NCBI GenBank assembly: GCA_937975745.1
Contig: CALJUK010000225.1
Location: 1 to 52,115, forward strand
Source of the DNA: an uncultured Planctomycetaceae bacterium
Lineage (GTDB): Bacteria > Planctomycetota > Planctomycetia > Planctomycetales > Planctomycetaceae
Length of the DNA: 52,115 bases
Direction of reading: 5' to 3'
Under the pieces are notes generated by a model. The model did no database searches, was not told where the DNA came from, and was given only the letters and a program-made list of their open reading frames with translations. Shown here piece by piece: positions 2,273 through 28,341 of the stretch (the first letter of the stretch is position 1; every line of letters begins with the position of its first letter). The translations under genes and the position numbers were made by a program.

Positions 2273-2293
2273 CTGGAGTGAGCCCCGATAGTC
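2273..2293 (+). promoter_or_regulatory. bipartite promoter-like motif CTGGAG-N7-CGATAGT (copy I)
   Basis: CTGGAGTGAGCCCCGATAGTC, followed by hairpin CCGGCCG/CGGCCGG (2301-2322). Upstream of the HNH gene. Confidence 0.55.
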
Positions 2294-2430
2294 AGTAAAA
2301 CCGGCCGGATCGCTTCGGCCGGTAAAGGAAGGGGGCTGTCTGTCTTGGCTGGAATGCCGCCACGAACGTACACCTATCTGGAGTCTATTCCTGTTTCGGC
2401 TTACCGTTAAACGGTCAACTTAAACCTGGA

Positions 2431-2916
2431 GTGCTTTCCATGTTCTGGCCACTGCTCCTGAAACCGATCCCCGACCACCCCAAATACTACGCATGCCCGG
2501 CCGGTCACATCTGGTCGAAATGGTACGCGCGCGTGAGAAGGCTGAGACCTTCCTTAAGCAATATGGGGTACCCACAACTCTCCGTTTACGTGGATGGACG
2601 ACAGCTATCGAGGCGTGTGCATCGCTTGGTTCACTTAGCGTTCCACGGGCCTATCGATGATGGTCTTGAGTGCTGTCACCTTGACGGGAACCCCAAGAAC
2701 TCGCGACCAGACAACCTGACTGCCCTCACCCACATTGAGAACGAACGCCAGAAGCTCATGCATGGCGTCGCCAAAGAGCGGAAACTCACAGAAGCTGACG
2801 CACGCGCGATCAAGTACGCCGAGAACGGAACACAAGGCGCCATCGCCAGGAAATACGGGATCAACTACCGAACCGTCGGCGATATCCGCAAAGGCCGCAC
2901 CTGGAAACACATCTGA
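2431..2916 (+). CDS. HNH homing-type endonuclease
   Basis: CCHLDGNPKNSRPDNLTALTHIEN is an HNH_3-type motif, with a C-terminal HTH-like tail. GGAG at 2428-2431 favours ATG2440 as start. Confidence 0.8.
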   Translation: MLSMFWPLLLKPIPDHPKYYACPAGHIWSKWYARVRRLRPSLSNMGYPQLSVYVDGRQLSRRVHRLVHLAFHGPIDDGLECCHLDGNPKNSRPDNLTALTHIENERQKLMHGVAKERKLTEADARAIKYAENGTQGAIARKYGINYRTVGDIRKGRTWKHI

Positions 2917-2926
2917 TCGATCCCGG

Positions 2927-2947
2927 CTGGAGTGCCCCTCGATAGTG
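2927..2947 (+). promoter_or_regulatory. bipartite promoter-like motif (copy A)
   Basis: CTGGAGTGCCCCTCGATAGTG, 11 nt after the HNH stop. Followed by a hairpin and CACCACAACAACA (2981-2993). Confidence 0.55.
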
Positions 2948-3008
2948 CTTGTGCAGCGGTGGTTTCATGTGAGCCGCCGTCACCACAACAACACTGGGAG
3001 CTTCAACC

Positions 3009-3347
3009 ATGGGTTTGTTTACCAACGCGGACCTGATCAGCGTCTACTCGACCGATCAGGCGATTGAGGATGGGGTTTTGCACCATCCGTATCCTTCGGA
3101 GTGGCCCTGGCTGCTCGTCACTGATGCCGTCTGGAAATCAGCCCAGAACGTGTCCCTCAATCGGCGCGTTGATTTTCGTGACGTACTGCGGCCGTTCCTC
3201 GGCGACTGCATCCTGGCTGTGCAATACGCCATGCGGCAGACGCCCGATGTTGACCTTGTCAAGGTTCAGGGCACCTGCGTGGGAACCGTCTGGGTTCGCC
3301 CCAACGACAAGAAGGGCATGACGGTCATGTTTCCGGAGGACCACTGA
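3009..3347 (+). CDS. hypothetical protein
   Basis: 112-aa ORF with GGGAG SD. Its stop overlaps the next start (ATGA at 3344-3349 region). Confidence 0.6.
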   Translation: MGLFTNADLISVYSTDQAIEDGVLHHPYPSEWPWLLVTDAVWKSAQNVSLNRRVDFRDVLRPFLGDCILAVQYAMRQTPDVDLVKVQGTCVGTVWVRPNDKKGMTVMFPEDH

Positions 3348-3682
3348 TGGAGGCGGAAGTCGAATCCACTAGTAAGAAACACCCCCTTGAAGTGTGGTTC
3401 TTCGAGCGAGCGTCGACGGGTGCACGGCGGGACTTCATCCGTGCTGTCCATGAGCTTGGGGAGATGTCCCCCGACGAGATTGAGTCCTGGTTCTACAGGC
3501 TCAATGAAAATGATCAGCGGATATTCATCCGGGAAACGACTGCGTACGTGGGATGCCTCACCTTCGAAGAGGCGGCTCGCCAAGTGGACTGGGGCGATCC
3601 CCATGCTTCATCCGCTGTGCACGCCCTCTGCAAACCCTTTTGGCTCGACACGAGAACTCACGTCTTGCGACCGAGTAACTGA
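3347..3682 (+). CDS. hypothetical protein
   Basis: 111-aa ORF translationally coupled to the previous gene. Confidence 0.55.
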   Translation: MEAEVESTSKKHPLEVWFFERASTGARRDFIRAVHELGEMSPDEIESWFYRLNENDQRIFIRETTAYVGCLTFEEAARQVDWGDPHASSAVHALCKPFWLDTRTHVLRPSN

Positions 3683-3825
3683 TTCCACGTCACGTGTTGT
3701 GGCGATGGGCTGCCGCACCTTTTCCTTTGCGGCAAAGGCATCCAGCCGGCGACGTCTGGTGGGAATTGTCCCGATCAGACACGTGACAGGGTCGTGCTGG
3801 GTGCCTCTTCTGCTGATGACCAACC

Positions 3826-4404
3826 TTGGAGAATCCAATGCTCAAAGCTCTTGAAGAAGCTGACCAACCTCAACTGACAAGCCGACAGAAAGAGATTTAC
3901 GAGTTCCTGAAGGACCTCATTCTCAACCGCGGCTACGGACCCAGTGTGAGGGAGATTGGCGCACACTTTGGGATTCGATCGCCCAACGGCGTGATGTGCC
4001 ACCTCAAGGCACTCGAAAAGAAGGGGTTGATCACTCGGAAGTCGCACATGTCTCGAGCAATCCAACTTGTTGGGGCCGACTCTCCCATGAATCGGACCAT
4101 GCTGAGGGTTCTCGCAAAACTGGACAGCAAGAAGCTCGCTAACACGGAAGACTCAGTCGACCTATCGGAAATACTTGGCTCCACGAAATTCGCTGTCCGT
4201 GTCAAGGATGACTCACTTAAGAATCACGGCATTCGCCCTGGCGATTTGGTCGTTCTCGACCACGTTGACCACGACACCGTTAAGGCCGGAGACGAAGTCG
4301 TCGGGACACGTGACGGGAAACCCAGCGTGAACACCTTCGTTTCAGGACGCGACGACGATCTCGTGCTCTACGGCAAGCTCGTTGCCGTGATTCGGCTCCC
4401 CTGA
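3826..4404 (+). CDS. LexA-like repressor with an apparently incomplete catalytic dyad
   Basis: N-terminal winged HTH (LTSRQKEIYEFL...GYGPSVREIGAHFGIRSPNGVMCHLKALEKKGLI). S24-like C-terminal part (VRVKDDSLKNHGIRPGDLVV) keeps the Ser, but the Lys position reads SVNTF. Confidence 0.7.
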   Translation: MENPMLKALEEADQPQLTSRQKEIYEFLKDLILNRGYGPSVREIGAHFGIRSPNGVMCHLKALEKKGLITRKSHMSRAIQLVGADSPMNRTMLRVLAKLDSKKLANTEDSVDLSEILGSTKFAVRVKDDSLKNHGIRPGDLVVLDHVDHDTVKAGDEVVGTRDGKPSVNTFVSGRDDDLVLYGKLVAVIRLP

Positions 4405-4405
4405 C

Positions 4406-4426
4406 CTGGAGCCTCCCTCGATAGTG
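4406..4426 (+). promoter_or_regulatory. bipartite promoter-like motif (copy B)
   Basis: CTGGAGCCTCCCTCGATAGTG, 2 nt after the stop at 4402-4404. Followed by a nested hairpin and CACCACACCACAACAACA (4467-4484). Confidence 0.55.
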
Positions 4427-4494
4427 CTACTGGGACTCACGACCCAGCGAGGGACTTCTTTCCCGTCACCACACCACAACAACACGGTGATTCC

Positions 4495-5142
4495 ATGAGT
4501 GCTCTCTTCGAACGATGGCGCCCCCAGACCCTTGATGAGCTGAAGGGGTTCGAAACAGTCAAGCAGCAAATACTTCAGGTGCAGGCGTCTGTCGGCCTGA
4601 TGGGGCAATCCTTCTACATCACCGGACAGTCCGGTACAGGCAAAACCACCATCGCTCGCATTCTTGCCAATGCGGCTTCCGATCCCACTTGCATCGAGGA
4701 AGTGGATGGTGCTGACGTCAATGTTGACACCATCCGTGAATGGGAGAAGCAGTCCCAAAGCAGGCCTCTCTTTGGTAGCGGGTTTGCTTACATCATCAAT
4801 GAAGCTCACACGATGCGGTCGCCGGTTGTTTCCCGCATGAACACGACCCTCGAATCTCCTGGGATTCAGCGGAACGCTTTGTTCCTGTTCACGACCACTG
4901 CCGATGGCAATAAGCATCTGTTCGATACCAAGTTTGACGCCTTGCCGTTCCTGTCACGATGCCTACACCTGAAACTTGAACTGGATGTCGACACTGTCCA
5001 CCAGATGGCCAATCACCTCTGCCACATCTGTGAGACTGAGGGGTTTGCCACTGGTACTAAGGATGAGTTCGTTGAGCAGTTGCAGGAAACATCCTTCAAC
5101 CTGCGTTCCTGCATTCAGTCTCTACCAATGCGTGTTGCATGA
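4495..5142 (+). CDS. clamp-loader-like AAA+ ATPase (RFC small subunit / DnaX-HolB-like)
   Basis: RWRPQTLDELKG N-terminal box, Walker A GQSGTGKT, Walker B YIINEAH, and an SRC motif (LSRCLHLKL). Only 215 aa. Confidence 0.65.
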   Translation: MSALFERWRPQTLDELKGFETVKQQILQVQASVGLMGQSFYITGQSGTGKTTIARILANAASDPTCIEEVDGADVNVDTIREWEKQSQSRPLFGSGFAYIINEAHTMRSPVVSRMNTTLESPGIQRNALFLFTTTADGNKHLFDTKFDALPFLSRCLHLKLELDVDTVHQMANHLCHICETEGFATGTKDEFVEQLQETSFNLRSCIQSLPMRVA

Positions 5143-5169
5143 AATCCCCCGAACCCGTGACCATCCCTC

Positions 5170-5883
5170 ATGAGCCAGCAACCATCCAACGAGAACTCTT
5201 CTAAACACATTCATGAATTCGTCTGGAAAACGAACTTCGGCCACGATGCAGAATTCGCTTGGTTTGTCGACGGCGTTGTTCACCTGGAATGCATGCCTTG
5301 TGAAGAAGGTGCTATCCAGCACGGCACCACCCAAATAGAAAACAACACCTACACACGCTGGATAGCCCCTGCATCCGAATCGCTCGCTGAGAAAGTTCGA
5401 GCTGAGTACCGACGAAAAGTCAGGGAAGGAACACTCGTGCGTGCTACGGATATCAAGTCTCGCGAGAAACGCCGGCGTGTACGCAAAGCGAAAAAACAAC
5501 AGCAAGCGAAAGAGCGGACCAAACGTCGACGACAAGTCATTGCCGAACACCCTGTAGCTATTCCAACAGAGCTGCGTGGAGTCTTCATCCTTATGAGGGA
5601 TGGTGACGTTCTCGACGGGCGCTACCGCAGAGTCAATAGGGGTGAGCGTGGTGACATTCGGGCGATCAACACAGATCAACCGCTTACGGCCGCCGGATAC
5701 GGCTACAACACTGCGATCTACTCCCGGATCGGGGCTGATCGTGCTGTGAAATCCTTCAAGCAGCTCACTCACGAAGAGCTAGCATCCTTCGCCTCTCTTC
5801 ACATCAAGAAAATGGGTCACTACCGAAATGGATACGCCGAACAGCAAGAGCAACACGAACGAGACTCACCCCGAGTGTCATGA
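5170..5883 (+). CDS. hypothetical protein with a highly basic central segment
   Basis: 237 aa, with KRRRVRKAKKQQQAKERTKRRRQ in the middle. Confidence 0.55.
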   Translation: MSQQPSNENSSKHIHEFVWKTNFGHDAEFAWFVDGVVHLECMPCEEGAIQHGTTQIENNTYTRWIAPASESLAEKVRAEYRRKVREGTLVRATDIKSREKRRRVRKAKKQQQAKERTKRRRQVIAEHPVAIPTELRGVFILMRDGDVLDGRYRRVNRGERGDIRAINTDQPLTAAGYGYNTAIYSRIGADRAVKSFKQLTHEELASFASLHIKKMGHYRNGYAEQQEQHERDSPRVS

Positions 5884-6025
5884 TATCGATCAGTTCTTCT
5901 CTGACATCGAGGGCTCACTGGATGTGTTCGACCAGCGAATCTCACGACTAGAGGCCAACTTTCAGGAAGAATCTCAAACCGTCCGCCTGATCCTACGACG
6001 CATCGAGCGAAGGCTGAATCAGTGA
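5828..6025 (+). CDS. small hypothetical protein (coiled-coil-like)
   Basis: 65-aa ORF. It overlaps the previous ORF by 56 nt and its stop overlaps the next start (GTGA). Confidence 0.3.
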   Translation: MDTPNSKSNTNETHPECHDIDQFFSDIEGSLDVFDQRISRLEANFQEESQTVRLILRRIERRLNQ

Positions 6026-6321
6026 ACCACATCTTCATCGCACATCGACAGGCCTGGGAAGCCGTTGCGAGAGCCCGTCTTGACAGAGGCATTGAACTCC
6101 CATTTGCCACAAGGGTCATCGAAAATCTTGACCTCTTCACAATTCGGGGACATCAGGGGTTCTACAACCCATTCTACCTACACCCGACTCGACTCCCCCC
6201 AACATCCATTGTTGCTATCTCGGAACTCGGAGTGATCGGATTCGTTCATGACCCAAGAGACGTCAAGCAATGCCTCGAAGACATCGTCTCAATGTCCGAG
6301 TACAACGACATCCCCTTCTGA
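6022..6321 (+). CDS. hypothetical protein
   Basis: 99-aa ORF with a GTG start overlapping the previous stop. Confidence 0.45.
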   Translation: MNHIFIAHRQAWEAVARARLDRGIELPFATRVIENLDLFTIRGHQGFYNPFYLHPTRLPPTSIVAISELGVIGFVHDPRDVKQCLEDIVSMSEYNDIPF

Positions 6322-6361
6322 TTTTGTATCGAATCAATTTCTTACGCGCGAAGAGATTCTC

Positions 6362-6763
6362 ATGCAGTACACGCTGTTCTGGGAAACCATGCCAGAGCCC
6401 CAGAAGTCTCGCGTCCAGGAGTTTATGTCTTCTGGGAACGTCGTCGTCCCCACCGGATCGCGGATATACGCACCAGACGCTGTTACTGCGGACTCTGACT
6501 GGGACTTGGTGTTTCTCAAGGGAGCAACCACTCTCCCGCCCGAAACCAAGACAACAAGCGATGGATCGTCTTCCTGGACACTTCGTGATGGACCGGTGAA
6601 CTACATCCTGTGCAGCGTGCGCGAGTTCAAATCCTGGGTAAACGCCACGAAGCTCATGTTTCATGTTCCCCGCGGAGCGATCTTCAACAAGAACGACCGC
6701 GTGGCCATGTTCCGGAAACTCATGAGGGCCCCAATAGTCGCCGGCTGGAGCCGCCGTCGATAG
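6362..6763 (+). CDS. putative nucleotidyltransferase-fold protein
   Basis: Internal ATG of ORF 6248..6763. TGSRIYAPDAVTADSDWDLVF resembles the G-S...D-x-D minimal NTase signature. Confidence 0.35.
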   Translation: MQYTLFWETMPEPQKSRVQEFMSSGNVVVPTGSRIYAPDAVTADSDWDLVFLKGATTLPPETKTTSDGSSSWTLRDGPVNYILCSVREFKSWVNATKLMFHVPRGAIFNKNDRVAMFRKLMRAPIVAGWSRRR

Positions 6764-6765
6764 TC
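6745..6765 (+). promoter_or_regulatory. bipartite promoter-like motif (copy C)
   Basis: CTGGAGCCGCCGTCGATAGTC. It overlaps the last codons and TAG stop (6761-6763) of the upstream gene. Confidence 0.55.
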
Positions 6766-6818
6766 AGGCTGGCGGCAAGTTCGCCGCAACTCACCACCAC
6801 AACTTTTTGGAGAACATC

Positions 6819-7691
6819 ATGTCTACAGAACTACTGGGTAACGTCGTTACCTGGACCGTCAGTTCGAGCGGGCTACCGCTCGGAACAATTCGTCAAGCCC
6901 TGGAAGACGCGGGACTTGACCCGGAAATCGCCAAGGAACTCAACGCGAGATCAACATTCTCTCGGGCTGCTCGACACCTCAAGGAGAATCGCACCATTGA
7001 TCGCGTTAACAACGCGTCCGATGACACTCTCACTTTTCAGTTCACCAAGAAGACTGACCGGGGTTCGTCGATCGAGTTCGACATGGAGTGCCTCGTTCAC
7101 CTCAACCTTGAAACTGGCGTCATTACATGTCGGGATTCATCCATCGAATCTGAAGCCCGTCTCAAGTTCACTGAGGTCAAGGACCTTCGCACGGCCAGCG
7201 ACATCACTCGCTTGGTTCAGAAGCTCTTCCGGGAGAACGCGGACCTGTTCCCAATCAACCCCAAACACGGCGGGGCTTACTTCGTTCCTGATCAGCACTC
7301 CACATTCACTGAACGGGTGCAAGACTTCATCTTCCGTGTTGGCGGCCAGCTTCACATGTTCCCCGTTCCCAAGGGGACCGAGCAGGGCAACCAGTCTGTT
7401 ATGAACTCCGTGGCTACCGGCTTGGAGTCACTACTCGTGGAGATGGATAAAGCAATCGAGGATTGGACATCCGACACTCGCCCGAGCACCGTCCAACGGG
7501 CTGTTGATAAGTTCCAGGAAATGAAGATCAAGGCGGACACCTACGCTAGTTACCTGGGAGCGCGACAAGACGAGATCGCTGAGAAGCTAAAGAAATCCGT
7601 GTCAGCACTCGTTACCCGATCCAATGACCTTGGACTTGCCAAGGACAATGAAAGCTCAACCAGCAAGGCTGGAGCCCCCGCCGATAGTTAG
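6819..7691 (+). CDS. hypothetical protein, first gene of the MoxR/VWA neighbourhood
   Basis: ORF 6807..7691. GGAG at 6809-6812 favours ATG6819. No motif recognised. Confidence 0.6.
   Translation: MSTELLGNVVTWTVSSSGLPLGTIRQALEDAGLDPEIAKELNARSTFSRAARHLKENRTIDRVNNASDDTLTFQFTKKTDRGSSIEFDMECLVHLNLETGVITCRDSSIESEARLKFTEVKDLRTASDITRLVQKLFRENADLFPINPKHGGAYFVPDQHSTFTERVQDFIFRVGGQLHMFPVPKGTEQGNQSVMNSVATGLESLLVEMDKAIEDWTSDTRPSTVQRAVDKFQEMKIKADTYASYLGARQDEIAEKLKKSVSALVTRSNDLGLAKDNESSTSKAGAPADS
7669..7689 (+). promoter_or_regulatory. bipartite promoter-like motif (copy D)
   Basis: CTGGAGCCCCCGCCGATAGTT, overlapping the 3' end of the upstream gene (stop 7689-7691). Confidence 0.55.
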
Positions 7692-7736
7692 TTCGACGCC
7701 ACTTGGCGACCACCACAACACCTCTGGAGTGCAACC

Positions 7737-8828
7737 ATGACAATCCGAGACAAATTCACCACCGTGCGAGACGAGATCAACACGTCTCTCATTGAACGCG
7801 AACCCGAAGTTGACGCAGCACTCGTTGCCATGCTGACCGGCGAACACTGCCTGTTCGTTGGCGACCCTGGCACAGCAAAGTCACTTCTCTCCGACACGCT
7901 CGTTCGCTGGATTAACGGCACCAGCTTTTCCTGTCAGCTCAACAAGTTCACGCAACCCGACGAACTGTTCGGACCCACCAGCGTGAACGGCCTTAAGGCT
8001 GACGAGTTCCGACGTATCACCGATGGCATGCTGCCCGAAGCTGACGTCGCCTACATCGACGAAATCTTCAAGGCATCTTCAGCCATTCTCAACACGATGC
8101 TTCAGGTGCTGAACGAGCGAAAGTTCAAGAACGGGAAAACCACACTCGACTGCCCCCTGAAACTGGCAATCGCAAGCTCCAACGAGTGGGCAACCGGCAA
8201 GGAGCTTGGTGCCCTCTTCGACCGCTTCCTGATTCGACGCGAGGTTAAGCCTGTCAGCACCCCTGATGGGATCAAGCGACTTGCATTCGATCACAACCTC
8301 GTCCCCGCCCTGAGTGACTCGCTGACTACGGTGGAACTTGAAGCCGCACAGGCCGAGGTTGCTTCTGTCACCTGGAAAGACACCGCCCAAGACGCCTTTC
8401 TGCAAATCTCACGACAGCTCACGACTGAGGGGATCAGGATCGGCGACCGACGACTTCGGAAGGCTGCCAACATCTGCCGTGCAACCGCTTGGATGGATGG
8501 AGAGGCTGAGGTCACAACCGAGCACTTCGGGATTCTCTCTGATGTCCTTTGGGGATCACCAGAAGACAGCAACACGAGCCGGCAAGTGATCGTCGATATC
8601 GCCAAGCCATCTTCGATGGTGTTCGCCACATCCCTGGCCCAAGCCAATGAGATCATGGGACAGATCGACGCAAGCGATGTGAAGTCCCTCGCCACTGCTG
8701 GTGGTAAACTCGATGCCCTGATTAAGGACGCGGCCAGCAAGCCCAACAGCGATAAGCTGGTCGGAAAACTCAAATCAATGGTTGCTCAACTTCAGGCTGA
8801 TGTCCTGAAGGCAACCGTCAACGTATAG
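7737..8828 (+). CDS. MoxR-family AAA+ ATPase (RavA-like)
   Basis: Walker A LFVGDPGTAKSL and Walker B VAYIDEIFKAS. The N-terminal layout (REPEVDAALVAMLTGEHCLFVG) resembles RavA. Confidence 0.8.
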   Translation: MTIRDKFTTVRDEINTSLIEREPEVDAALVAMLTGEHCLFVGDPGTAKSLLSDTLVRWINGTSFSCQLNKFTQPDELFGPTSVNGLKADEFRRITDGMLPEADVAYIDEIFKASSAILNTMLQVLNERKFKNGKTTLDCPLKLAIASSNEWATGKELGALFDRFLIRREVKPVSTPDGIKRLAFDHNLVPALSDSLTTVELEAAQAEVASVTWKDTAQDAFLQISRQLTTEGIRIGDRRLRKAANICRATAWMDGEAEVTTEHFGILSDVLWGSPEDSNTSRQVIVDIAKPSSMVFATSLAQANEIMGQIDASDVKSLATAGGKLDALIKDAASKPNSDKLVGKLKSMVAQLQADVLKATVNV

Positions 8829-8846
8829 AAGCCTGTTGTTGTGGTG

Positions 8847-8896
8847 GCGACTGGCGGGTGATGAGCATGACTCTCATCCCCGTCAGTCGCTTTTTT
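8847..8896 (+). terminator. strong rho-independent terminator
   Basis: 12-bp stem GCGACTGGCGGG (8847-8858) pairing with CCCGTCAGTCGC (8879-8890), one G-T pair, inner helix GATGAG/CTCATC, then T6 (8891-8896). Confidence 0.85.
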
Positions 8897-8921
8897 CACG
8901 CGCCAACCCAAGGAACTCACC

Positions 8922-10352
8922 ATGACAGACAAACCGGACACGCCATCCACCGATGAGTTGATGGCCCTCGGCAACCAACTTCAGTCGGCGATTGAATCCA
9001 ACCTTCAAGAGACTCCAGTTGATCTGGACATCACTCAGGATGCGGACACACCTGATGAGGAAGAACAGCCCCTGTCCAAGACCGCTCTTGAACTCGATGA
9101 CTGGTCAATGGCACGTGGGCGGTCCTGGCTCCACTCAGAGCACTGCCCACCATCACTGAAGGATGTTGCGGAACCAAGCACTCCGGCCACCTTCGCGGCC
9201 GACATGCTTGCTATGGCATTCGAGATGTCTCCGCAATTCGCTAAGAACCCTGAGAACTCACGCCTGTCCCACTTCCTCAAGACCCTCTCCAACACGCCAG
9301 CTTACAGGGCTATCCATGAACAGACGCAGTTGAAGCCGATCCCCAGCGAAATGGCCGCGTCATCGTTCGCCACTGAGTTCATCGCCCTCGCTAAACAAAC
9401 ATGCCCCAAGGATCAGCTTGAGCAGGACGCTCAAGCACTGTCGGCCGCTAACAAGGCACTCGACGCCGCCGGCAAGGATGTCGAGAACTACTCCAATTCC
9501 TGTCAGAGCTTGGGTGGTGACGGAAGCGATCGCTCGATGGGCATGTCGCCTGAGAAGGTTCGCGAGCTGTTCACAAGGATTCGCGAGAACAGTCAGCTTC
9601 GCAGGATCATGGAACTTGCTGGGCGATACCAACGCCTCGCTCGATCAATTCAAAACACCAAGCCAACTCACGGCCAAGATGAGGTTGTTGGAATTGAACT
9701 TGGAAACGACATCTCACGGATGCTTCCAGTTGAGCTTTCCAAGCTGTCCGACCCTTCGCTTGAAGACTCGTTCTATCAACGGTTCGCTGATGGACGGCTC
9801 TTTCAGTACGAACTCAGAGCGACTGCCAATGATGCTCGTGGACCGGTCGTTGTCGTTGTTGACGAATCCGGTTCCATGACCGGAGACCCTGTCGCCAACG
9901 CCAAAGCCTTCGCTCTCGCTATGGCCTGGATTGCTCGACACCAGAAACGATGGATTTGTCTCGTTGGGTTTGCCGGTGGAACCGAGGGAAACTACTTCGT
10001 TCAGCAGCCGGGAGAGTCCAATGTTGAAGGACTTATCAACTGGCTGGCGCACTTCTATAGCGGCGGAACATCCTGTGATGTCCCTCTCGTTGAGCTGCCG
10101 ACCAAATGGGGTGAGCTTGGATGCCCCAAGGGTCGCACCGACATCATCATGGTCACTGATGGCATCGTGAATGTGCCAGACGGCATCCGTGACGACTTCA
10201 ACAAGTGGCGTGCAGACACCGAGGCCAAGACCAATCTGATTGTGATTGGCCAATCGACACCCGGCGACATGAACAAGATCGCCGACAACGTCTACCTGCC
10301 TCAGCACTTCGGGCTTGAAGCCGAGGGAGTTGCCGAGTCACTCGCCGTCTAA
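8922..10352 (+). CDS. von Willebrand factor A domain protein (ViaA/CobT-like partner of the MoxR ATPase)
   Basis: C-terminal VWA domain with MIDAS VVVVVDESGSMTG. Acidic N-terminal stretch DADTPDEEEQ. Confidence 0.8.
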   Translation: MTDKPDTPSTDELMALGNQLQSAIESNLQETPVDLDITQDADTPDEEEQPLSKTALELDDWSMARGRSWLHSEHCPPSLKDVAEPSTPATFAADMLAMAFEMSPQFAKNPENSRLSHFLKTLSNTPAYRAIHEQTQLKPIPSEMAASSFATEFIALAKQTCPKDQLEQDAQALSAANKALDAAGKDVENYSNSCQSLGGDGSDRSMGMSPEKVRELFTRIRENSQLRRIMELAGRYQRLARSIQNTKPTHGQDEVVGIELGNDISRMLPVELSKLSDPSLEDSFYQRFADGRLFQYELRATANDARGPVVVVVDESGSMTGDPVANAKAFALAMAWIARHQKRWICLVGFAGGTEGNYFVQQPGESNVEGLINWLAHFYSGGTSCDVPLVELPTKWGELGCPKGRTDIIMVTDGIVNVPDGIRDDFNKWRADTEAKTNLIVIGQSTPGDMNKIADNVYLPQHFGLEAEGVAESLAV

Positions 10353-10403
10353 GCCTGATGAGTCCGTAGGGACGAAACGCGGTCACTCGGCCGCGTCGCT
10401 TAG
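10349..10403 (+). ncRNA. type I hammerhead self-cleaving ribozyme
   Basis: CTAAGC-CTGATGA-GTCC(GTAG)GGAC-GAAA-CGCGG(TCACTCGG)CCGCG-TC^GCTTAG. Full catalytic core and three helices. Predicted cleavage is after C10397. Confidence 0.85.
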
Positions 10404-10427
10404 CACCACAACACTACGAGGTAACCC

Positions 10428-10760
10428 ATGCCGAAAAAACCAAACTCCCCAACGATTCCCCGCTACACAGACGGGGTCCCTGTCACTATCCCGCCTCGTG
10501 AGGCTGAATGCTTCCGATACTGCGGGGATGGGCTGACGACTTGGGAAATGGCTCGAATCATGAATGTCAAGGAGAAGACCATCGCGTCATTCAAGGCTCG
10601 CCTTAAGGATAGGCTAGACCTCGAATCCACAGCAAAAATGATCCACTACGCAACCTTGTATTTTCACCTGGAATGTGACAATGCCCAACGTTCTCTACGG
10701 AAGATTATCGAAACTGCCTCGCCGAACACTTCAGTCCCACGCTCGGAGCAATCAACTTGA
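10428..10760 (+). CDS. LuxR/GerE-type HTH transcription regulator
   Basis: PPREAECFRYCGDGLTTWEMARIMNVKEKTIASFKARLKDRL. Confidence 0.7.
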   Translation: MPKKPNSPTIPRYTDGVPVTIPPREAECFRYCGDGLTTWEMARIMNVKEKTIASFKARLKDRLDLESTAKMIHYATLYFHLECDNAQRSLRKIIETASPNTSVPRSEQST

Positions 10761-10901
10761 GCGTGATGACTCCGGAAAAGCCCTCTACATGCACACCCGA
10801 AAGTGCATGAGGGAACACAACGGCGCATGCCGGTTTTCCTGCAATGAACCCAAGGGTGGTTTCGTAGCTAGCGACATCAACGATGTGGAGGCCGACAAAC
10901 A

Positions 10902-11048
10902 ATGAGGTACAAGATCGAAGAACGAAGCTGGGACGGAGAAACCTACCTAGTCGTCGTCGACACGGAACGTGAGAACGAAAGCGATCCCTACATTCTTTGT
11001 CAGCAGCCGCTTGAATTCTACGCCTACCCGGAGGGGGGCATTTATTGA
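10902..11048 (+). CDS. small hypothetical protein (48 aa, below the ORF-track cutoff)
   Basis: Hand translation: MRYKIEERSWDGETYLVVVDTERENESDPYILCQQPLEFYAYPEGGIY. The ATG overlaps the stop of ORF 10675..10905 (ATGA). Confidence 0.25.
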   Translation: MRYKIEERSWDGETYLVVVDTERENESDPYILCQQPLEFYAYPEGGIY

Positions 11049-18723: not shown

Positions 18724-18732
18724 CCGCGCACG

Positions 18733-20789: not shown

Positions 20790-21148
20790 AGCTCCTCCAG
20801 TCGGCGGTTTCACAGTGACGAGAGCACAGCTCAATTGACCGCCGACAAAACAAACCTGACTTCGACAAGTGGTTCGCGCACCGACCCCGTCAAGGGCCGG
20901 GTATTAGTCATCTGACTTGCGACAATGGGACAGAAGACCGGCCAGGACTGGCTTTGATATCGGAGTCATCCTGGCTTGCACCCGCACTCCGTTCCCACGT
21001 GAATTCCGACCCGGACGTCGTACACCGATCGGCATGGAAAATCTCTGCCCGTTGTCCCGCTGAGGACAGGCTAGGCGGGCCCTGCTGATGCCATCGGAAC
21101 GGCTCCTGTCAGCTCAGGTTGAGCAATTGGGCTCTATGTACGCGCACG

Positions 21149-21192
21149 AAAAAAGCCACAAATGAGTAGTGCGGTACTCAAATGTGGCTTTT
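21149..21192 (-). terminator. rho-independent terminator, usable in both directions
   Basis: GCCACA/TGTGGC plus TGAGTA/TACTCA two-part stem (21155-21188), flanked by A6 (T6 on the minus strand) and T4. Lies 50 nt downstream of the tRNA on the minus strand. Confidence 0.8.
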
Positions 21193-21241
21193 GGCTCGCC
21201 GTGGCCGGCAAGTTTTCCTGTCCTGTCCGCACACAGGTAAG

Positions 21242-21313
21242 TTGCTCGGGCTGGATTCGCACCAGCGATCTTCAGGGTATGAACCTGACGAGATACTACT
21301 TCTCCACCGAGCG
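21242..21313 (-). tRNA. tRNA-Met (anticodon CAT), initiator-like, with non-canonical D and T loops
   Basis: Hand fold: CGCTCGG TG GAGA AGTAGTA TCTC G TCAGG TTCATAC CCTGA AGATC GCTGG TGCGAAT CCAGC CCGAGCA A. All four stems pair. Has C1xA72 and A11:T24. Confidence 0.6.
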
Positions 21314-21570: not shown

Positions 21571-21709
21571 TGAAATTCCCCTTCATTCTCGCGCCCATCC
21601 CTGGGCCTTTCACCACGATTCCTAACGCTCAGGGGGGTAACCCAACTCTCCAGTGAATGTTTATCACAAAATGTCACTGCTATTGGAGTTGCGTCGAGTT
21701 TCAGTTCCC

Positions 21710-21749
21710 AAAAACACCGTGCTATTTGGGAAAAACACCGTGCTATTTG
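21710..21749 (+). repeat. tandem direct repeat, 2 x 19 nt with 21-nt period
   Basis: AAAAACACCGTGCTATTTG at 21710-21728 and 21731-21749, plus a degenerate third copy (cactgctattgg) near 21675-21686. Confidence 0.9.
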
Positions 21750-21900
21750 AGGCCACTCCGGGAATCGAACCCGGAACCCAAAGGTTGCTTCAAGGTCGTC
21801 AAGCGGTTGCCCGCCTCATGGACTCCACAGTTCCCCTGGTGCGCGTGCCCGTCCCCAACGCCTAGCCGTTTCGCTCGACACTCAGCGCGGACAAGTGGCC
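21750..21900 (-). ncRNA. tRNA-like structured element R (non-canonical, about 150 nt)
   Basis: Minus strand: 5' GGCCACT (21900-21894) ... AACC-TTTG-GGTT, CCGGG-TTCGATT-CCCGG, AGTGGCC (21757-21751), T. Internal GNRA hairpin GGCGG-GCAA-CCGCT (21815-21802). Confidence 0.35.
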
Positions 21901-21910: not shown

Positions 21911-22070
21911 GGTGCCCCGTGAGGGGTTCGAACCCTCGTGACTCTCGCAGTCACCCGTCCACTCACGCCCGTCGACGCTCGCTTCGCAAAGCTTCCTGAA
22001 TGAGAGATGCAGGCTCCGTGGCGTACGATCCACATTGCGAGCACGCTGGCACCCATGCCAGCCTCAGGGC
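21911..22070 (-). ncRNA. tRNA-like structured element S (non-canonical, about 157 nt)
   Basis: Minus strand: GCCCTGA GG CTGG-CATGGGTG-CCAG ... GCTT-TGCG-AAGC ... GTGAC-TGCGAGA-GTCAC, GAGGG-TTCGAAC-CCCTC, ACGGGGC A CC. Confidence 0.35.
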
Positions 22071-22077
22071 ATCACTT

Positions 22078-22398: not shown

Positions 22399-22432
22399 TG
22401 ATCGTCTCCGGGGCCAATTGACTTCCACCCCT

Positions 22433-22453
22433 CACTATCGAATCCAACTCCAG
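22433..22453 (-). promoter_or_regulatory. bipartite promoter-like motif (copy G)
   Basis: Minus strand CTGGAGTTGGATTCGATAGTG, 34 nt upstream of ATG22398. Confidence 0.55.
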
Positions 22454-22477
22454 CCGACCGGCTGGATTGCATCACGG

Positions 22478-23019: not shown

Positions 23020-23478
23020 TCAAGACTTACCAAGCGATGACAGCTCACACCCGATGTTCTTCCGGAATTCCTTCCAGTCGTCCTTGTCTGAACCCAGGAC
23101 AGTGTCAGTGAGGCGACCAACCGTAGGGCCCACCTCGTTGGCGTTCTCAAACGTGCCTTTCGCCGCTTCTTCACCAACAACCCGGTAGACAGCCGCGATC
23201 TTGCGGGCGTTAACCGGCTTGTCATTCGCTGTAACCGCCTCGTACCAAGACTTGACCTTTGTGGCGAATGAAGGGGAATCAGGCGGCGATGGATCGTTTG
23301 GCGAACCAGATGTGCGAATCACTCGCTGAGCCGAAACCTTGACTCGTTTCGCGCCACCATCAGCCGTCAGTGTGACAACAGATGCACTGCCGTCCGAGTG
23401 CATCAGGATGATCGTTTCGTCAGCCAGTGCCGTTGCACCAACCACGAAACACACAACAAAAGCTAGACATCGCCCCAT
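23020..23478 (-). CDS. secreted protein with a Sec-type signal peptide
   Basis: MGRCLAFVVCFVVGATALA-DE. Confidence 0.5.
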   Translation of the reverse strand: MGRCLAFVVCFVVGATALADETIILMHSDGSASVVTLTADGGAKRVKVSAQRVIRTSGSPNDPSPPDSPSFATKVKSWYEAVTANDKPVNARKIAAVYRVVGEEAAKGTFENANEVGPTVGRLTDTVLGSDKDDWKEFRKNIGCELSSLGKS

Positions 23479-24260
23479 GGGTCGTCGTCTCCGAGATCAG
23501 GAGTGGAAGCGTCCGGGATGAATCGCAGGACGCCCACTTGCTTCCCGCCAACCAGGACTGGTGAATCGTTGATCTTGACCGTGGTCCCGGGAACCGGTGG
23601 CTCTGGGTCAGGGCGTTCGGCAGGGCCATACCCCAAACGAACGGCACGATCGACGTCGTTCTGAGTCAATCCATCTAGGCCACGGATCATGTAGGGATTC
23701 ATGATGTAGTTGCCGCGGTTGTGCGGCAGCCCAAGAAGATGGCCAAGCTCGTGCAGGGCAACGAGATAGAGGTAGTGTGATGTCCAGGATCGGATGTCGT
23801 ACCGCTGCTGGAACCCCTTGCCGCACGTGTTGTTTGCAAGGTGAGACCAAGCAAGCGTGTTGCCGTCGAGGTGCCCGAAATCAACTGTGCAATGCGCGGC
23901 CCTCGATGTTGTCAGGTGCCACTTGAGGTTAACGTGTTCCATCCAGTCCTTGAGTGCGCGGTCAAACTGCTCCTCAAATGTCCTCTTGGTGATACCCATC
24001 CGCCCAGACCAGTTGTCCCAGTCAATTCGAAGTTGAAGCTTCTGGGAGCAGAGTTCTGGGAATCGAGCCTCAGCGATTTCTCCATTCGCTCCAGCCACGT
24101 CGGGGACCGAGCAGCAGCGGTTCATGAGATGCTCTTCAATCGCCGGATTGACACCACCTAACTTGTCAGCCAAATCAGTGATGTCATCGCTCCAGAAGGA
24201 CCGGTAGTTGTTCTTGGAGAGTCCTGTGAAACTCAACGCTCGGTTGGCAACTTCATGCAT
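23463..24260 (-). CDS. matrixin/metzincin-type zinc metalloprotease
   Basis: LVALHELGHLLGLPH (HExxHxxGxxH) followed by a Met-turn candidate (YIMNPYM). Confidence 0.75.
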   Translation of the reverse strand: MHEVANRALSFTGLSKNNYRSFWSDDITDLADKLGGVNPAIEEHLMNRCCSVPDVAGANGEIAEARFPELCSQKLQLRIDWDNWSGRMGITKRTFEEQFDRALKDWMEHVNLKWHLTTSRAAHCTVDFGHLDGNTLAWSHLANNTCGKGFQQRYDIRSWTSHYLYLVALHELGHLLGLPHNRGNYIMNPYMIRGLDGLTQNDVDRAVRLGYGPAERPDPEPPVPGTTVKINDSPVLVGGKQVGVLRFIPDASTPDLGDDDPWGDV

Positions 24261-24495: not shown

Positions 24496-24500
24496 GCCCT

Positions 24501-24521
24501 CACTATCGGACGGCACTCCAG
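24501..24521 (-). promoter_or_regulatory. bipartite promoter-like motif (copy H)
   Basis: Minus strand CTGGAGTGCCGTCCGATAGTG. It nearly fills the gap between stop TAG (24525-24523) and ATG24495. Confidence 0.55.
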
Positions 24522-24522
24522 G

Positions 24523-27500
24523 CTACTTGGACTCGGCCTTGCGGCGCTCCTTCTGTCGCTTCGACCAGAGGGACAGCAAATCTTGGAGTCGCTGAGCTTC
24601 AGCACGTTCCTTGGGCGACATCGCCGCGAGGTCGTCGGGCCGGAAGTAGAGCCGCTCGAACTTGCCCGCGCCGCGACTGAGCATGTCTTCCCGAACAAGC
24701 TCCCGGATTACCGCTTCCTTCGCACCTGGGCTGATATCGCTGACGCGAACACCCGTGAGGATGTTGGCCAGTGCTGCCGGTCCTGGGATTCGAGTCCCAG
24801 GGATCGCCTTTCGCTCATCGGTCAGTTGACGAACCGTCGTCAAGGCCCGTGCAGCCGGTGAATTCGCTACGGCCGTTTCGAGCCATTGCGGTAGTTGGAC
24901 AGCCTTCTTCTCGCCTGTCACGTTCGCCAGGAGACGTCCAACGAGGGGATCGAGGTCTTCGAGCGGCCGCCCGCCGGACGGACTCTTCTGGAAGAAGCTC
25001 TGACCTGTGAAGTACTCCAGGGGGCCTTTGACGAATGGATTCATCCGGCTGAGCACCTCAAGGCCGGCCGATCGAGCGTCTGGACCGAACGACAGCGGGT
25101 CTTCGTGCATCATCCCGAAGCCAGCGAGATACCGGTCTGTGCCGGCCGGAAGCTGCCCGAGAATATTCCCCAGCGGAATACTCGCCGTGTCGCGCACGTA
25201 GTCCGGAGCCGTCTCGGCATCCTGGTGCGCAAGGCGTTGTGTGCGGATTGTCGCGCCGAGGGGTCCGCCTGGGCGCTGGGCGAGTTCACTCACCACCTGC
25301 TTGCCCATCCGGCTGGAGAAGCTCCAGAACGGGATCAGACGCTTCATGATCTGCTGCTCGAACGGCGTGAAATACCGATTCGAATACTGGACCTGTGCCT
25401 GACCCACGAGTTTGGCTGCCTCGTCTCGGGCTGTCCCGCGTCGCAGAAGCTCAATGTACGGGGCGAGACGGTTGCGACCTTCCACGTAGTGACCAATCTC
25501 TTCGCCGGCCGCGAGAGGCCCCCACGTGCTCTCCGTGGCCCCTCGAACGCCTCTGAACTGAGCTTTGAGGGGATTGAGCTGCGTGTCCGGGTGAAGGCCG
25601 GACGCCTTCTGTGCGACCCGTCCAAGCCGCATGGCGGGATCACCCACGTCAACCTGACTGGAAAGCATCTCACTCAGCGATCCGGGCTTGGCCGCCGTCT
25701 TCTCGGTCTGAGCGATCGTGGCGGTCACATCGGTGGCTTGGTTGTTTCGCGAGAGGATCCCATCGGCAGACGCCATCTCCCCGAGAATCCTACGGGCCAT
25801 GTCGTCCGTAAGTCCGGGCGCATCGGCTGGATCAAACACGTAGCTGTTGCCAACCTTTCGATACCCCATGCCGTCGAGAATCGCTCCAAACTCAGGCGTC
25901 GCCTCTTCGACGACAACCCGCTTACCGGTTCCTGCCAGGGTATTGTGGAGCCGCCGGAAGTCTCCACGTCCAGGGACCGCAGACTGAACCCGCGCCACGA
26001 CCAGGGCATCAGGAACCTGCACTCCCTTGGCACCAACGTCTCTACCTGCCCAATCCTGACGACGAATCAGAAGATCGGGGAACGTTTCGTTCGACAGACT
26101 GTGCGATCCGCCCACTGGAGCACTCGCCACATCCTGTACGCGAGCTGCCAAGGCCTCATCGACCAGCTCACCGCCGGCTTGTCGCCGTGCCCACTCATCA
26201 CGGATGGCGGGGAGTTCCCGGAGCCCCGCAACCGCTCGCCCCTTCATGTAGTCACCAGCCATGGACTCCGCCTGTCGGCTGGTAATCCCCTTCATGAAGT
26301 TCCAGGCGAGACCAGACATGCGGTTTCGGACGTGGAAGGCCGGCCAGATCGAGGTCCACATGCCTTTGCCGAAGTTCGTAACTCCGTCGACGATCTTCAG
26401 CCATTCGTCGAGTTCGTCCGATCCGGTCATCTGCTTCATGTATTGGCGCACATCGTTGGCGATCTCCCTCGAAACAACCGCCTTTCCGAGTTCACCTGTC
26501 GTGACGTCTCCGGTCAGGCCGAGTTTCTTGAACAGGTACTCCCCAAACCCACCAGCCTCGTCAGACTTGCCCCACTTCAGCCCCACTTCCTTGACGAGTG
26601 TCATGAGCTGGACGGTGTCGCGAGCATCAGCAATCGCGTCGCCACGCAGCTTTACCACGCCCGGCTGTGAGAGGACATCGGCCAATGTTTCGATCGAGAC
26701 GTCCGCGTTCTTCGATGCCAGAAGTCGTGCGTTAAGGTCCTTGAGTGGGTGGTTGCCGAAGATTCCGGAATCAAGCGTCTCAGGCGCATAGCTTCCCAGC
26801 CGTTTCGCGAGGGCCTTGTACCGGCCGGTCTCCCTTCGAACCCACTCCCCAGCGCCGCCTCCGCCGGGAGTCTCCTTGAACATGCGGTAGGAGTCTGGCA
26901 GCCAGCTCCCGTGCTTTGCTTCTAGGAATTTGGCCACATCCTCGGTCTTGACGCCGTCTCGCGCGAGAACTTGCGCCAACTCCGGATCACGGGCGATCTC
27001 TTTTGCCGCGATGGTTCCGCCGGGGATGTCGCGGAAGACGTCCAGGCGGCCAATCTGAGATGAGTCTGCGGCCGAGATGAAGGCCTTGTCGCGGGCCGGC
27101 TTGTGGCCGAGAGCTTCCGCTATGAAGCGTGGAAAGTAATCGATGTAGTCGTCCGTCAGCTCCCCAGTCTTCTTCCCGATCGCCTTTCCCTGCTCGATCA
27201 TGGGTTTGATCAGGTCGCGTGCATCGTTCGCAACCTTTTGCATCACCTGCAACTGCTCGGGAGTTGTCCGCTTGAGCGTTTCGTCAATCCCAGCCCTCAC
27301 TGTCGATGGGACATCGGCGGGGCGCACACCCTCCATCATCATCCGCAGGAGGTCGCCAGCCGCCTCATCGGAGACGCCAGCCGTCTTGAGTTCGTTCCCG
27401 AGCCGAACCGCCTCGAGCTGCACATCTCCCATCGCAGCAATCTTCTCATCAAACGACCGCTTGGCGAATCGCTGAACCAAAGCACTCTTGGTCCCATGAA

Positions 27501-28341
27501 GTGCTGCGTCGAACAGACGAAACCCTGCATCGATCGGGCGAATCTCAGTGCCTGGAATGGCCGCGCGGCGGATTCCTGTGCCGATCTTGTCGAGGCGACG
27601 TGCTGCCGCCTGAGACTTTGCGCCCGTCCCCAGAACTGCTGACGGAGCAGAGAACGGGAGTCCTGCCCCAAACAGACCGCCGAGTTGCTCACCGCGGACT
27701 GCGTCCAGGGATGTTCCCATCTGCTGGGCGGCGGTGTGCGCCTTTGCTGTCGCCTGATCGCCACCATACTTGAGGAGATCGTCGAGCGTTGTGGAGAGCA
27801 TCGCCTCACGACGACCGATCTGATCAACCGGCTTGCCCGCCTTCTTCGCGGCCGCAAACACCGCATCATCAAGAAGCCCCGCTCGTTTGGCGACCTGACC
27901 AGCCTTTCCTACCGCCGACGCCCCCAAGGACAGGTATGTAAGCGGGTCGAGCCCCATTTCAATTCCGAGTCCACCCCAGAAGTTCCCGGTGGTGTCCCGC
28001 GAGCGTGCGAGGCCCATGTTGCGGGCAATGTCCCGCCCCGTCGTGCGCCCCTCGGATGAGAACCAGTTCCAGGGGAGAAGCTGATCGAGCGGGTTTCTGT
28101 CGCCGCGCCGGCCGCCTGAGAACAGATTGACCGTGTCACGAACCACGGAACCCGGCAAATCCAGAAAGTTCCCGACAGCTCCCGCCGTGTTAATTGCGCC
28201 ACTTCGTAGGCTCCCGACGAGAGATCGCTCTTCCTGGTCGCTCATCGGCTGTCGAGCTGGAGCCCGCCTCGATAGTGAGGCTGTCCGGCCAAGGAGCCTT
28301 GCCAGTTCTGGGTCAATCTGCGCAAGCACTTGCGACATCAC
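24523..28341 (-). CDS. very large virion-associated protein (internal/ejection or tape-measure-like; function unassigned)
   Basis: 1272-aa uninterrupted ORF at the distal end of the structural block. No catalytic motif recognised. Confidence 0.6.
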   Translation of the reverse strand: MMSQVLAQIDPELARLLGRTASLSRRAPARQPMSDQEERSLVGSLRSGAINTAGAVGNFLDLPGSVVRDTVNLFSGGRRGDRNPLDQLLPWNWFSSEGRTTGRDIARNMGLARSRDTTGNFWGGLGIEMGLDPLTYLSLGASAVGKAGQVAKRAGLLDDAVFAAAKKAGKPVDQIGRREAMLSTTLDDLLKYGGDQATAKAHTAAQQMGTSLDAVRGEQLGGLFGAGLPFSAPSAVLGTGAKSQAAARRLDKIGTGIRRAAIPGTEIRPIDAGFRLFDAALHGTKSALVQRFAKRSFDEKIAAMGDVQLEAVRLGNELKTAGVSDEAAGDLLRMMMEGVRPADVPSTVRAGIDETLKRTTPEQLQVMQKVANDARDLIKPMIEQGKAIGKKTGELTDDYIDYFPRFIAEALGHKPARDKAFISAADSSQIGRLDVFRDIPGGTIAAKEIARDPELAQVLARDGVKTEDVAKFLEAKHGSWLPDSYRMFKETPGGGGAGEWVRRETGRYKALAKRLGSYAPETLDSGIFGNHPLKDLNARLLASKNADVSIETLADVLSQPGVVKLRGDAIADARDTVQLMTLVKEVGLKWGKSDEAGGFGEYLFKKLGLTGDVTTGELGKAVVSREIANDVRQYMKQMTGSDELDEWLKIVDGVTNFGKGMWTSIWPAFHVRNRMSGLAWNFMKGITSRQAESMAGDYMKGRAVAGLRELPAIRDEWARRQAGGELVDEALAARVQDVASAPVGGSHSLSNETFPDLLIRRQDWAGRDVGAKGVQVPDALVVARVQSAVPGRGDFRRLHNTLAGTGKRVVVEEATPEFGAILDGMGYRKVGNSYVFDPADAPGLTDDMARRILGEMASADGILSRNNQATDVTATIAQTEKTAAKPGSLSEMLSSQVDVGDPAMRLGRVAQKASGLHPDTQLNPLKAQFRGVRGATESTWGPLAAGEEIGHYVEGRNRLAPYIELLRRGTARDEAAKLVGQAQVQYSNRYFTPFEQQIMKRLIPFWSFSSRMGKQVVSELAQRPGGPLGATIRTQRLAHQDAETAPDYVRDTASIPLGNILGQLPAGTDRYLAGFGMMHEDPLSFGPDARSAGLEVLSRMNPFVKGPLEYFTGQSFFQKSPSGGRPLEDLDPLVGRLLANVTGEKKAVQLPQWLETAVANSPAARALTTVRQLTDERKAIPGTRIPGPAALANILTGVRVSDISPGAKEAVIRELVREDMLSRGAGKFERLYFRPDDLAAMSPKERAEAQRLQDLLSLWSKRQKERRKAESK
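28257..28277 (+). promoter_or_regulatory. bipartite promoter-like motif (copy E)
   Basis: CTGGAGCCCGCCTCGATAGTG on the plus strand, antisense inside the first ~30 codons of the 1272-aa gene. Followed by a hairpin and ATG28360. Confidence 0.55.

Follow-up and report, generated by a model that had tools for sequence, protein, structure and literature searches.

A sharply bounded bipartite motif, CTGGAG-N7-CGATAGT, as a candidate phage-specific promoter in a tailed-phage genome from Planctomycetota

A 52,115-nt contig from an uncultured Planctomycetaceae assembly (GCA_937975745.1, contig CALJUK010000225.1; this whole stretch of DNA is called the window below) is part of a tailed-phage genome and carries nine exact copies of the bipartite motif CTGGAG-N7-CGATAGT. 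The motif is genuine and strongly selected, and it is quite probably a promoter. A probability of about 0.5 was assigned, on sequence grounds, to the more specific reading that it is a phage-specific promoter of delayed-early/middle genes, which would be read with a sigma-like protein encoded in the early operon. The coordinates of the copies and of the associated features are collected in Table 1.

The nine matches, six on the plus strand and three on the minus strand, bear out the count given in the first-pass annotation of this DNA, and no match arose in 100 dinucleotide-preserving shuffles. The sites reported there were recovered, although each span had been given 1 nt too long. When up to 3 mismatches were allowed, the matches in the window had either no mismatch or three, none having 1 or 2, and their total (18) was at the chance level (12.9 expected). 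The motif family is therefore sharply bounded. A tenth exact copy was located on the minus strand 15 nt past the left end of the window, at positions 2233-2252 of ENA contig ERZ869938 NODE_335 (L127), which belongs to the same phage (over 18.8 kb, contig and window are 99.9% identical; L127 2267 is position 1 of the window). Alignment of the copies widened the conserved span to 25 nt, R-S-CTGGAG-Y-N5-Y-CGATAGT-n-A-G, with 13 positions invariant across the ten copies and no conservation seen upstream of motif position -2. The invariance of the two blocks and their exact 7-nt spacing were thus as previously described, whereas the spacer, which had been considered wholly unconserved, has a conserved Y on each side and only 5 free positions. 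CGATAGT occurs 12 times in the window, three times without its partner block; about 5 chance occurrences would be expected by our composition-based estimate. The degenerate or half copies proposed earlier at 41624-41645, 11061-11070, 44676-44683 and 48123-48130 could not be upheld, half copies being at the chance level; the site at 41624 agrees with only about half of block 1. A role of CTGGAG as a restriction-enzyme target was rejected, since the phage contains 61 occurrences of this hexamer and does not avoid it.

Every copy was found to be co-oriented with the next gene, as had been claimed. The window copies end 6-148 nt before the start codon, and the tenth copy lies about 195 nt from its own (distances of 6, 18, 35, 48, 54, 62, 69, 86, 148 and ~195 nt for the ten copies). 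Placement within 148 nt upstream of a co-oriented start has a chance of about 0.1 per site by our estimate. The window is about 89% coding, yet six copies are wholly non-coding and two overlap the preceding gene, in its last 20 nt only; the remaining window copy (28257) lies, in antisense orientation, within the 5' end of a divergent gene for a protein of 1271 amino acids (aa). The copies at 28257 (plus) and L127 2252 (minus) stand at the heads of divergent units and have no co-directional gene upstream, so that a promoter is required at both. Copy 6 begins 9 nt past the tail of the strong terminator at 18733-18770, and copy 1, about 170 nt downstream of the terminator at 2070-2108, is the next signal to follow it. 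Of the four gene blocks, block A has five copies, block B three, block C one at its head and block D none; the tenth copy heads the leftward unit outside the window. No copy is present in the 22-kb structural operon (29.8-52.1 kb) or in the window upstream of position 1006. Canonical sigma-70-type promoter matches were scarcer than shuffled sequence would predict, numbering 1 against 4.6 expected in the 1-12 kb interval and 0 against 4.9 expected in the 12-30 kb interval.

A possible start-site signal was found downstream of the second block. At motif positions 26-27, that is, 6-7 nt past GATAGT, a pyrimidine-purine (Y-R) step is present in 8 of the 10 copies (about 4e-4 by our binomial estimate, which takes 25% per site as the expectation). 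Seven copies have G at position 27, and nine have a purine there. The corresponding step was seen at all five sites in related phages. A start at position 27 would place GATAGT at -12 to -7, CTGGAG at -26 to -21, GG at -24/-23 and CG at -13/-12, in agreement with the -24/-12-like arithmetic of the first-pass annotation. The leaderless mRNA that had been suggested at A24495 likewise fits a start 7 nt past GATAGT. In block A, hairpins follow all five copies (2273-7669). The five transcripts, if they begin at the predicted start, would open with a stem-loop preceded by 0-3 unpaired 5' nucleotides, and their first 35 nt have a mean minimum free energy of -11.7 kcal/mol compared with -6.0 +/- 3.4 kcal/mol for random 35-mers. 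These five transcripts are consistent with the 5'-terminal stem-loops proposed earlier and with a start 7 nt past GATAGT. The hairpin is not part of the motif; the same hairpin, together with a CA-rich leader (CACCACAACAAC), precedes the gene starting at 1678, which has no motif.

Two recurrent elements were noted. A 28-nt hairpin (ACCCCGCTGG...CCAGCGGGG) occurs at 1617-1644, in the gap that separates the two early genes, where it has no T-run and is followed by the CA-rich leader, and again at 2071-2098, where it carries a T-run and is the terminator of the early operon. The CA-rich leader lies between the 5' hairpin and the Shine-Dalgarno sequence of five early/middle genes (1645-1660, 2981-2999, 4472-4490, ~6790-6805 and 7711-7729) and also at about 65-80 of the related contig L135. 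Possible roles of this leader are the enhancement of translation and the binding of a protein.

The two-gene early operon (1006-2046) is located upstream of all rightward motif copies and ends at the strong terminator. Its first product, a 191-aa protein, had been described as sigma-like, and the comparisons lean weakly in that direction. The protein has no Pfam or PHROG match at normal thresholds, and only two homologs, both remote, were found among 1.8 billion representative proteins. Its alignment with Pfam Sigma70_r2 had an E-value of 0.15 and covered profile positions 8-69 of 71, and the two remote homologs matched Sigma70_r2 with E=0.003 and Sigma70_ECF with E=0.0065. In two AlphaFold models (pLDDT 50 and 61), three helices at the N terminus are followed by a disordered linker and then by a C-terminal domain of four helices. 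The best Foldseek matches of both models were nearly all sigma factors of the extracytoplasmic function (ECF) group (SigH, SigL, RpoE, SigW and BldN) or of the sigma-28/WhiG type, with E-values of 0.04-1. An hhalign comparison with a single sequence of Escherichia coli RpoE was collinear over regions 2 and 4 (E=0.09). An ECF-like sigma is a plausible but tentative assignment by sequence profile and structural model, and the 191-aa protein is the best candidate for the reader of the motif, at odds that we would put at even or slightly below. The second product, a 122-aa protein, may work with it, since the two genes are kept as neighbours in both contigs that encode the homologs. The sigma-like proteins varied too much for their alignment to serve in a scan of genome collections.

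The exact motif is private to this phage. The strict IUPAC pattern gave one chance match in IMG/VR and occurred in multiple copies in the metagenome collection only in contigs of this phage itself; when 14-15 bases were specified, scans of the collections yielded nothing beyond single matches at the chance level. No match was obtained among GenBank phages in a DNA search with 25 kb, and no relatives were found among viral contigs in single-protein searches with the 1271-aa protein and MoxR. The motif is absent from 21 kb of each of two contigs whose terminase is about 52% identical (L123 and L124) and from a syntenic relative (L133), which has a hairpin repeat of its own. Conservation in relatives, which the first-pass annotation had named as a check, did not hold for the exact motif, but analogous N7-spaced signals were seen at the same genome positions in the more distant relatives L136, L135 and L167. 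L136 (JGI 3300007643; MoxR 53% identical) carries TGGCAC-N7-CGAT(T/A)AC before its DUF6744 and MoxR genes, the positions of copies 6745 and 7669, and its TGGCAC-N7-CGATTAC site is syntenic with copy 4. L135 (SRR19514067; MoxR 65% identical) carries TTCGTG-N7-CGATAAT before MoxR, syntenic with copy 5 and followed by a hairpin and the CA-rich leader. In L167 (SRR26831696), homologs of the sigma-like gene (31% protein identity) and of the second early gene precede a terminator and then two YGGGAC-N7-CGATAACC sites, which have the same spacing as the motif and are followed by the same cAG...YG pattern. The 15-mer GCTGGAATGCCGCCA lies after the first of these sites and also at 2348-2362 of the window, downstream of copy 2273.

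The window and its relatives thus have a CGATA core, the N7 spacing and a downstream YG in common, and each lineage has an upstream hexamer of its own. A pattern of this kind has been reported for phiEco32 and 7-11, related phages whose divergent sigma factors use promoters that differ in sequence at matching places in the genome, transcription starting 6-9 bp past the promoter element (PMC8948821). A TGGCAG-N7-CGATACC sequence in a further contig (L251) was set aside, as it abuts a terminator and this contig has another repeated promoter-like motif. Two other features of the relatives were noted. The 15-mer GCTGGAATGCCGCCA is found in L167 at 1880-1894 and 1940-1954, kept though the proteins are only about 30% identical, and its matches in IMG/VR were only unrelated coding sequences. 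A palindrome, GTGCCAC-N-GTGGCAC, is intergenic in L136 (6 copies), L167 (3) and L251 (4) and is absent from the window phage. The sigma-like gene of L167 is preceded by a TTGACG-N17-TATGTT promoter whose 17-bp spacer is taken up exactly by this palindrome, which probably acts there, to judge from its position, as an operator on a host-type early promoter.

Table 1. Copies of the motif and associated features (window coordinates; the position of each copy is that of the 25-nt conserved span).
Feature	Position	Strand	20-nt motif	Predicted start	Remarks
Copy 1	2271-2295	+	2273-2292	2299	ggCTGGAGtgagcccCGATAGTcag; heads HNH-endonuclease gene 2441-2916
Copy 2	2925-2949	+	2927-2946	2953	Heads genes 3009-4404, including LexA/S24-like repressor gene
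Copy 3	4404-4428	+	4406-4425	4432	1 nt past TGA of gene 3838-4404; heads genes 4495-6763, including clamp-loader-like AAA+
Copy 4	6743-6767	+	6745-6764	6771	Overlaps final codons and TAG of gene 6362-6763; heads DUF6744 gene 6819-7691
Copy 5	7667-7691	+	7669-7688	7695	Within 3' end of gene 6819-7691; heads MoxR-VWA-GerE genes 7737-11048
Copy 6	18701-18725	-	18704-18723	18697	Heads 7.6-kb recombination/helicase/methylase operon, 18685 down to 11105
Copy 7	22431-22455	-	22434-22453	22427	Heads gene 22398-22078 and tRNA region
Copy 8	24499-24523	-	24502-24521	24495	Right after TAG of 1271-aa gene; predicted start is A of ATG of gene 24495-24253
Copy 9	28255-28279	+	28257-28276	28283	Antisense in codons of 1271-aa gene (ATG 28338, minus); heads unit 28363-29845, whose first gene (DUF6283) lies 86 nt downstream of the copy
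Intrinsic terminator, strong	2070-2108	+			14-bp stem, then TTTTTT; closes two-gene early operon
Intrinsic terminator	18733-18770	-			Directly upstream of copy 6
5'-proximal stem-loop, copy-1 transcript	2300-2323	+			1 unpaired 5' nt if the start is 2299
Equivalent stem-loops	2956-2980, 4432-4445, 6772-6787, 7697-7708	+
First early gene	1006-1581	+			191-aa orphan protein; weak ECF-sigma-like (sigma2 + sigma4) signature; candidate recognition factor
Second early gene	1678-2046	+			122-aa protein; possible co-factor; adjoins sigma-like gene in L166 and L167 too
Block A	1006-11048	+
Block B	28338 down to 11105	-
Block C	28363-29845	+
Block D, structural genes	52088 down to 29842	-

Based on these features, the following scheme may be proposed. 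Host RNA polymerase would first transcribe the early operon up to its strong terminator. The orphan ECF-like sigma, perhaps with its 122-aa partner, would then steer host core polymerase to the ten motifs, each of which would be the core promoter of delayed-early/middle genes for regulation, replication, recombination and accessory functions. In this promoter, Y-CGATAGT would be a -10-type element with GATAGT at -12 to -7, GCTGGAG an upstream element at -27 to -21, and the start a purine, usually G, 7 nt past GATAGT. The structural operon and the 1271-aa gene would depend on another promoter class.

Several points weigh against this scheme. Both the transcription start at the motif and the identity of the reader protein are what we infer from sequence. 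The sigma assignment stays under every curated threshold (Pfam E=0.15; Foldseek E at least 0.04 at pLDDT 50-61), and a PDB sequence search with the 191-aa protein or its profile found no sigma factor. Each lineage of relatives provides no more than one or two sites, and long flanks are common to both members of some site pairs, perhaps as a result of recent duplication. The genome is incomplete, with at least 2.5 kb beyond the window, so that an unseen polymerase or factor is possible. Finally, the upstream block ends 8 bp before the -10 hexamer, a gap that misfits the placement of sigma4 and sigma2 on RNA polymerase, which normally need 16-18 bp between their elements. Unless the model is wrong, the reader of the upstream block would not be a flap-bound sigma4 and could be a different component. 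It is doubtful that a sigma-70-family protein with sigma2 and sigma4 only, with or without the 122-aa partner, directs core polymerase to elements 7-8 bp apart. If it does, the upstream element would not be read by flap-bound sigma4 at -35, and the sigma-70 family would have a new type of promoter architecture, in phages of Planctomycetota. We know of no sigma-70-family precedent for so short a two-block spacing, and the -24/-12 geometry is otherwise known to us only for sigma-54.

Among the alternatives, a promoter read by a host holoenzyme, either with an alternative sigma of the ECF or sigma-28 type or with the housekeeping sigma and a phage activator at CTGGAG, is unlikely. The invariant GATAGT has A at position 2 and T at position 6, as in a -10 hexamer, and CCGATAG resembles the -10 element of sigma-28, GCCGATAA. 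Moreover, a CCGAT core precedes MoxR genes in four lineages (the window, L135, L254 and L257), a pattern that points to a conserved reader such as a host factor. However, the upstream counterparts are missing: no TTGACA was found 17 nt upstream, nor any TTGACA-like element 16-18 bp upstream of the hexamer at any copy in a consensus scan, and when the copies were compared with TAAA-N15-GCCGATAA, 6 of the 8 -10 positions agreed but no TAAA was present at the required place, 15 nt upstream. Thirteen invariant positions in ten copies would be unusual among host promoters, the multi-copy motif is confined, beyond the chance IMG/VR match, to metagenome contigs of this phage, and the last hexamer base in the relatives is C, which is poor for the housekeeping sigma.

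It is distinctly less probable that the motif is a one-orientation repressor site that blocks initiation or elongation. The model for such sites is the stoperator bound by gp71 of phage L5 and found in cluster A mycobacteriophages, which is asymmetric, present in many copies, located in short intergenic spaces and co-oriented with transcription (PMC9283540), as the motif is. The only repressor-like gene found in the window (3838-4404) encodes a protein of the LexA/S24 type, and the relatives have an operator-like palindrome at some of the same positions. LexA/S24 repressors, however, are dimers that bind palindromes, and the repressor of a stoperator system is a monomer with two domains. Stoperators are also spread over the entire genome, late genes included, and one overlaps the early lytic promoter; the motif occurs at neither place, no copies being present in the structural operon or before the early operon; it is also longer and bipartite, with start-site-like features downstream. 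A site 9 nt past a strong terminator would be redundant for repression, and the Y-R step and the downstream hairpins at fixed distance would be unexplained.

An action of the motif in RNA, as an endoribonuclease site, a nut-like antitermination signal or a translation signal, is very improbable. The frequent position at gene junctions, the hairpins that follow and the GGAG within block 1 would suit such a signal, and the gene at 1678, which has the hairpin and CA-rich leader and lacks the motif, indicates that 5' hairpins need no motif promoter. Recognition of DNA rather than of an RNA helix, as favoured in the first-pass annotation, was supported by several observations. The blocks are non-complementary and the spacer shows no covariation. 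Two copies stand at unit heads, having no co-directional unit upstream, one of them antisense in a coding region, and two follow terminators. The distance to the start codon is variable (6 to ~195 nt), unlike that of the start-associated sequences, which lie 3-7 bp from it (PMC3203893), and an Rfam search at the motif found nothing.

The promoter of an unrecognised phage-encoded RNA polymerase has a still smaller chance of being correct. Sharp promoters with conservation into the start region, here the nAG, are typical of phage polymerases, and in this incomplete genome many open reading frames (ORFs) have no known function. The large ORFs scanned gave no Pfam RNA-polymerase match, no DFDGD or NADFDGD sequence was found in six frames, the 1271-aa ORF belongs to a group of large polyvalent virion proteins, and the unconserved 5-nt centre is unlike T7-type promoters, whose conservation is contiguous over about 20 bp through +1. 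Least probable of all is a host sigma-54 (-24/-12) promoter, the type to which the first-pass annotation had compared the motif: although TGG is followed by G 12 nt later and the predicted start puts GG at -24/-23, only about 5 of 11 conserved positions agree, the dinucleotide 12 nt past GG is GA instead of the near-invariant GC in 10 of 10 copies, TTGC is replaced by YCGA, no conserved upstream activator sites were seen, and the phage window contains neither a GAFTGA-like loop (six frames) nor a PF00158 activator above threshold in Pfam scans, a host activator being possible.

The genes of the window are those of a tailed phage. They encode the large terminase subunit, tail-fibre-like proteins, the LexA/S24-type repressor, YqaJ-type recombination proteins, a helicase, methyltransferases, a DUF6744-MoxR-VWA-GerE module and the 1271-aa 'large polyvalent protein'. 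The MoxR relatives found in genome collections are on contigs of metagenome-assembled genomes of Planctomycetota (Urbifossiella, 54% identity; Gemmataceae, 47%; Planctomycetaceae, 47%), and a relative of the polyvalent protein adjoins an integrase gene in the genome of Planctomicrobium piriforme. Because these are the closest relatives, the host of the phage is probably a planctomycete. The 1271-aa gene (24523-28338, minus strand), of the large polyvalent virion-protein type, has no motif upstream and is therefore probably expressed with the late genes. No PHROG match was found for this protein or for the early proteins.

Further observations concern the surrounding sequence. About 1.2 kb between the divergent units (window 1-1005 and L127 2036-2266) contains no convincing gene; a T/G-rich stretch is present there at about 640-720, and a similar one precedes the sigma-like gene of L167 (120-230). 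Downstream of copy 22453 lie one tRNA-Met (21241-21313, minus strand), two tRNA-like T-arm sequences (~21913-21939 and ~21750-21775) not called by ARAGORN, and a tandem repeat of two CAAATAGCACGGTGTTTTT units at about 21705-21745. Three terminators, at 2096-2116 (+), 18725-18751 (-) and 21137-21157 (-), have the tail TTTTTCGTGCGCG in common. The gene at 4495-5142 encodes a 215-aa AAA+ protein with Walker A and SRC motifs, as in clamp-loader subunits, and recalls the clamp-dependent late transcription of phage T4. Two metzincin-like (Peptidase_M10) genes are located at 23463-24260 (minus) and 41707-42576 (plus); the latter is a lone plus-strand gene within the minus-strand structural operon and is preceded by a hairpin and a T-run.

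With regard to known promoter classes, the motif resembles sigma-54 promoters (TGGCAC-N5-TTGC) in the spacing of its elements and in TGG near -24. It differs in that the candidate factor is sigma-70-family-like rather than RpoN-like and that no enhancer-binding ATPase is encoded, the AAA+ proteins of the window being clamp-loader-like and MoxR-like. ECF promoters of group 4 (GGAAC-N16/17-CGT) are alike in the CG(A/T) at the upstream edge of the -10 element and in a GG upstream block (GGGAC in L167); CGAT is invariant here and the Y-R step, the predicted start, lies 6-7 nt past the hexamer, starts in ECF promoters being 6-8 nt downstream of the -10 element. The two-domain sigma2-sigma4 layout suggested for the candidate factor would be a further likeness. 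However, no GGAAC-like element was found 16-17 bp upstream, and the upstream block stands 7 nt from CGAT in 10 of 10 copies, a gap about 9-10 bp, or about one helical turn, shorter than in ECF promoters. Sigma-28 (FliA) promoters share the CCGATA core but differ in their TAAA 15 nt upstream, and the candidate factor is without a sigma3 domain. In cluster K mycobacteriophages, the start-associated sequences are likewise asymmetric, in one orientation and restricted to non-structural genes (PMC3203893), but they contain the ribosome-binding site, and their fixed place next to the start codon is not shared by the ten copies.

The closest comparison is with phage-encoded sigma factors, of which SPO1 gp28 and T4 gp55 are examples. 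The promoters of two others are tAATGTAtA for phiEco32 gp36 and GTAAtg-N16-aCTA for phage 7-11 gp47. The motif differs from those in its two blocks 7-8 bp apart, in place of a single element or a 16-bp gap, and in that the sigma-like protein is an orphan and the host is probably of Planctomycetota. Transcription in Planctomycetota and their phages is, to our knowledge, almost unstudied. A sharp 25-nt promoter and its small candidate factor would together serve as an orthogonal expression switch in these bacteria, which are hard to engineer, and the system would directly test a compact -24/-12 layout in a sigma-70-family factor. It would also be a clean case in which, among related phages, promoter and factor have changed in concert and genome positions have stayed fixed. 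As in the established phage-sigma systems, a small set of near-identical candidate promoters precedes non-early genes, a divergent sigma gene would be expressed first, the start would lie 6-9 bp past the proximal element, and relatives keep the positions of the promoters and change their sequence (PMC8948821).

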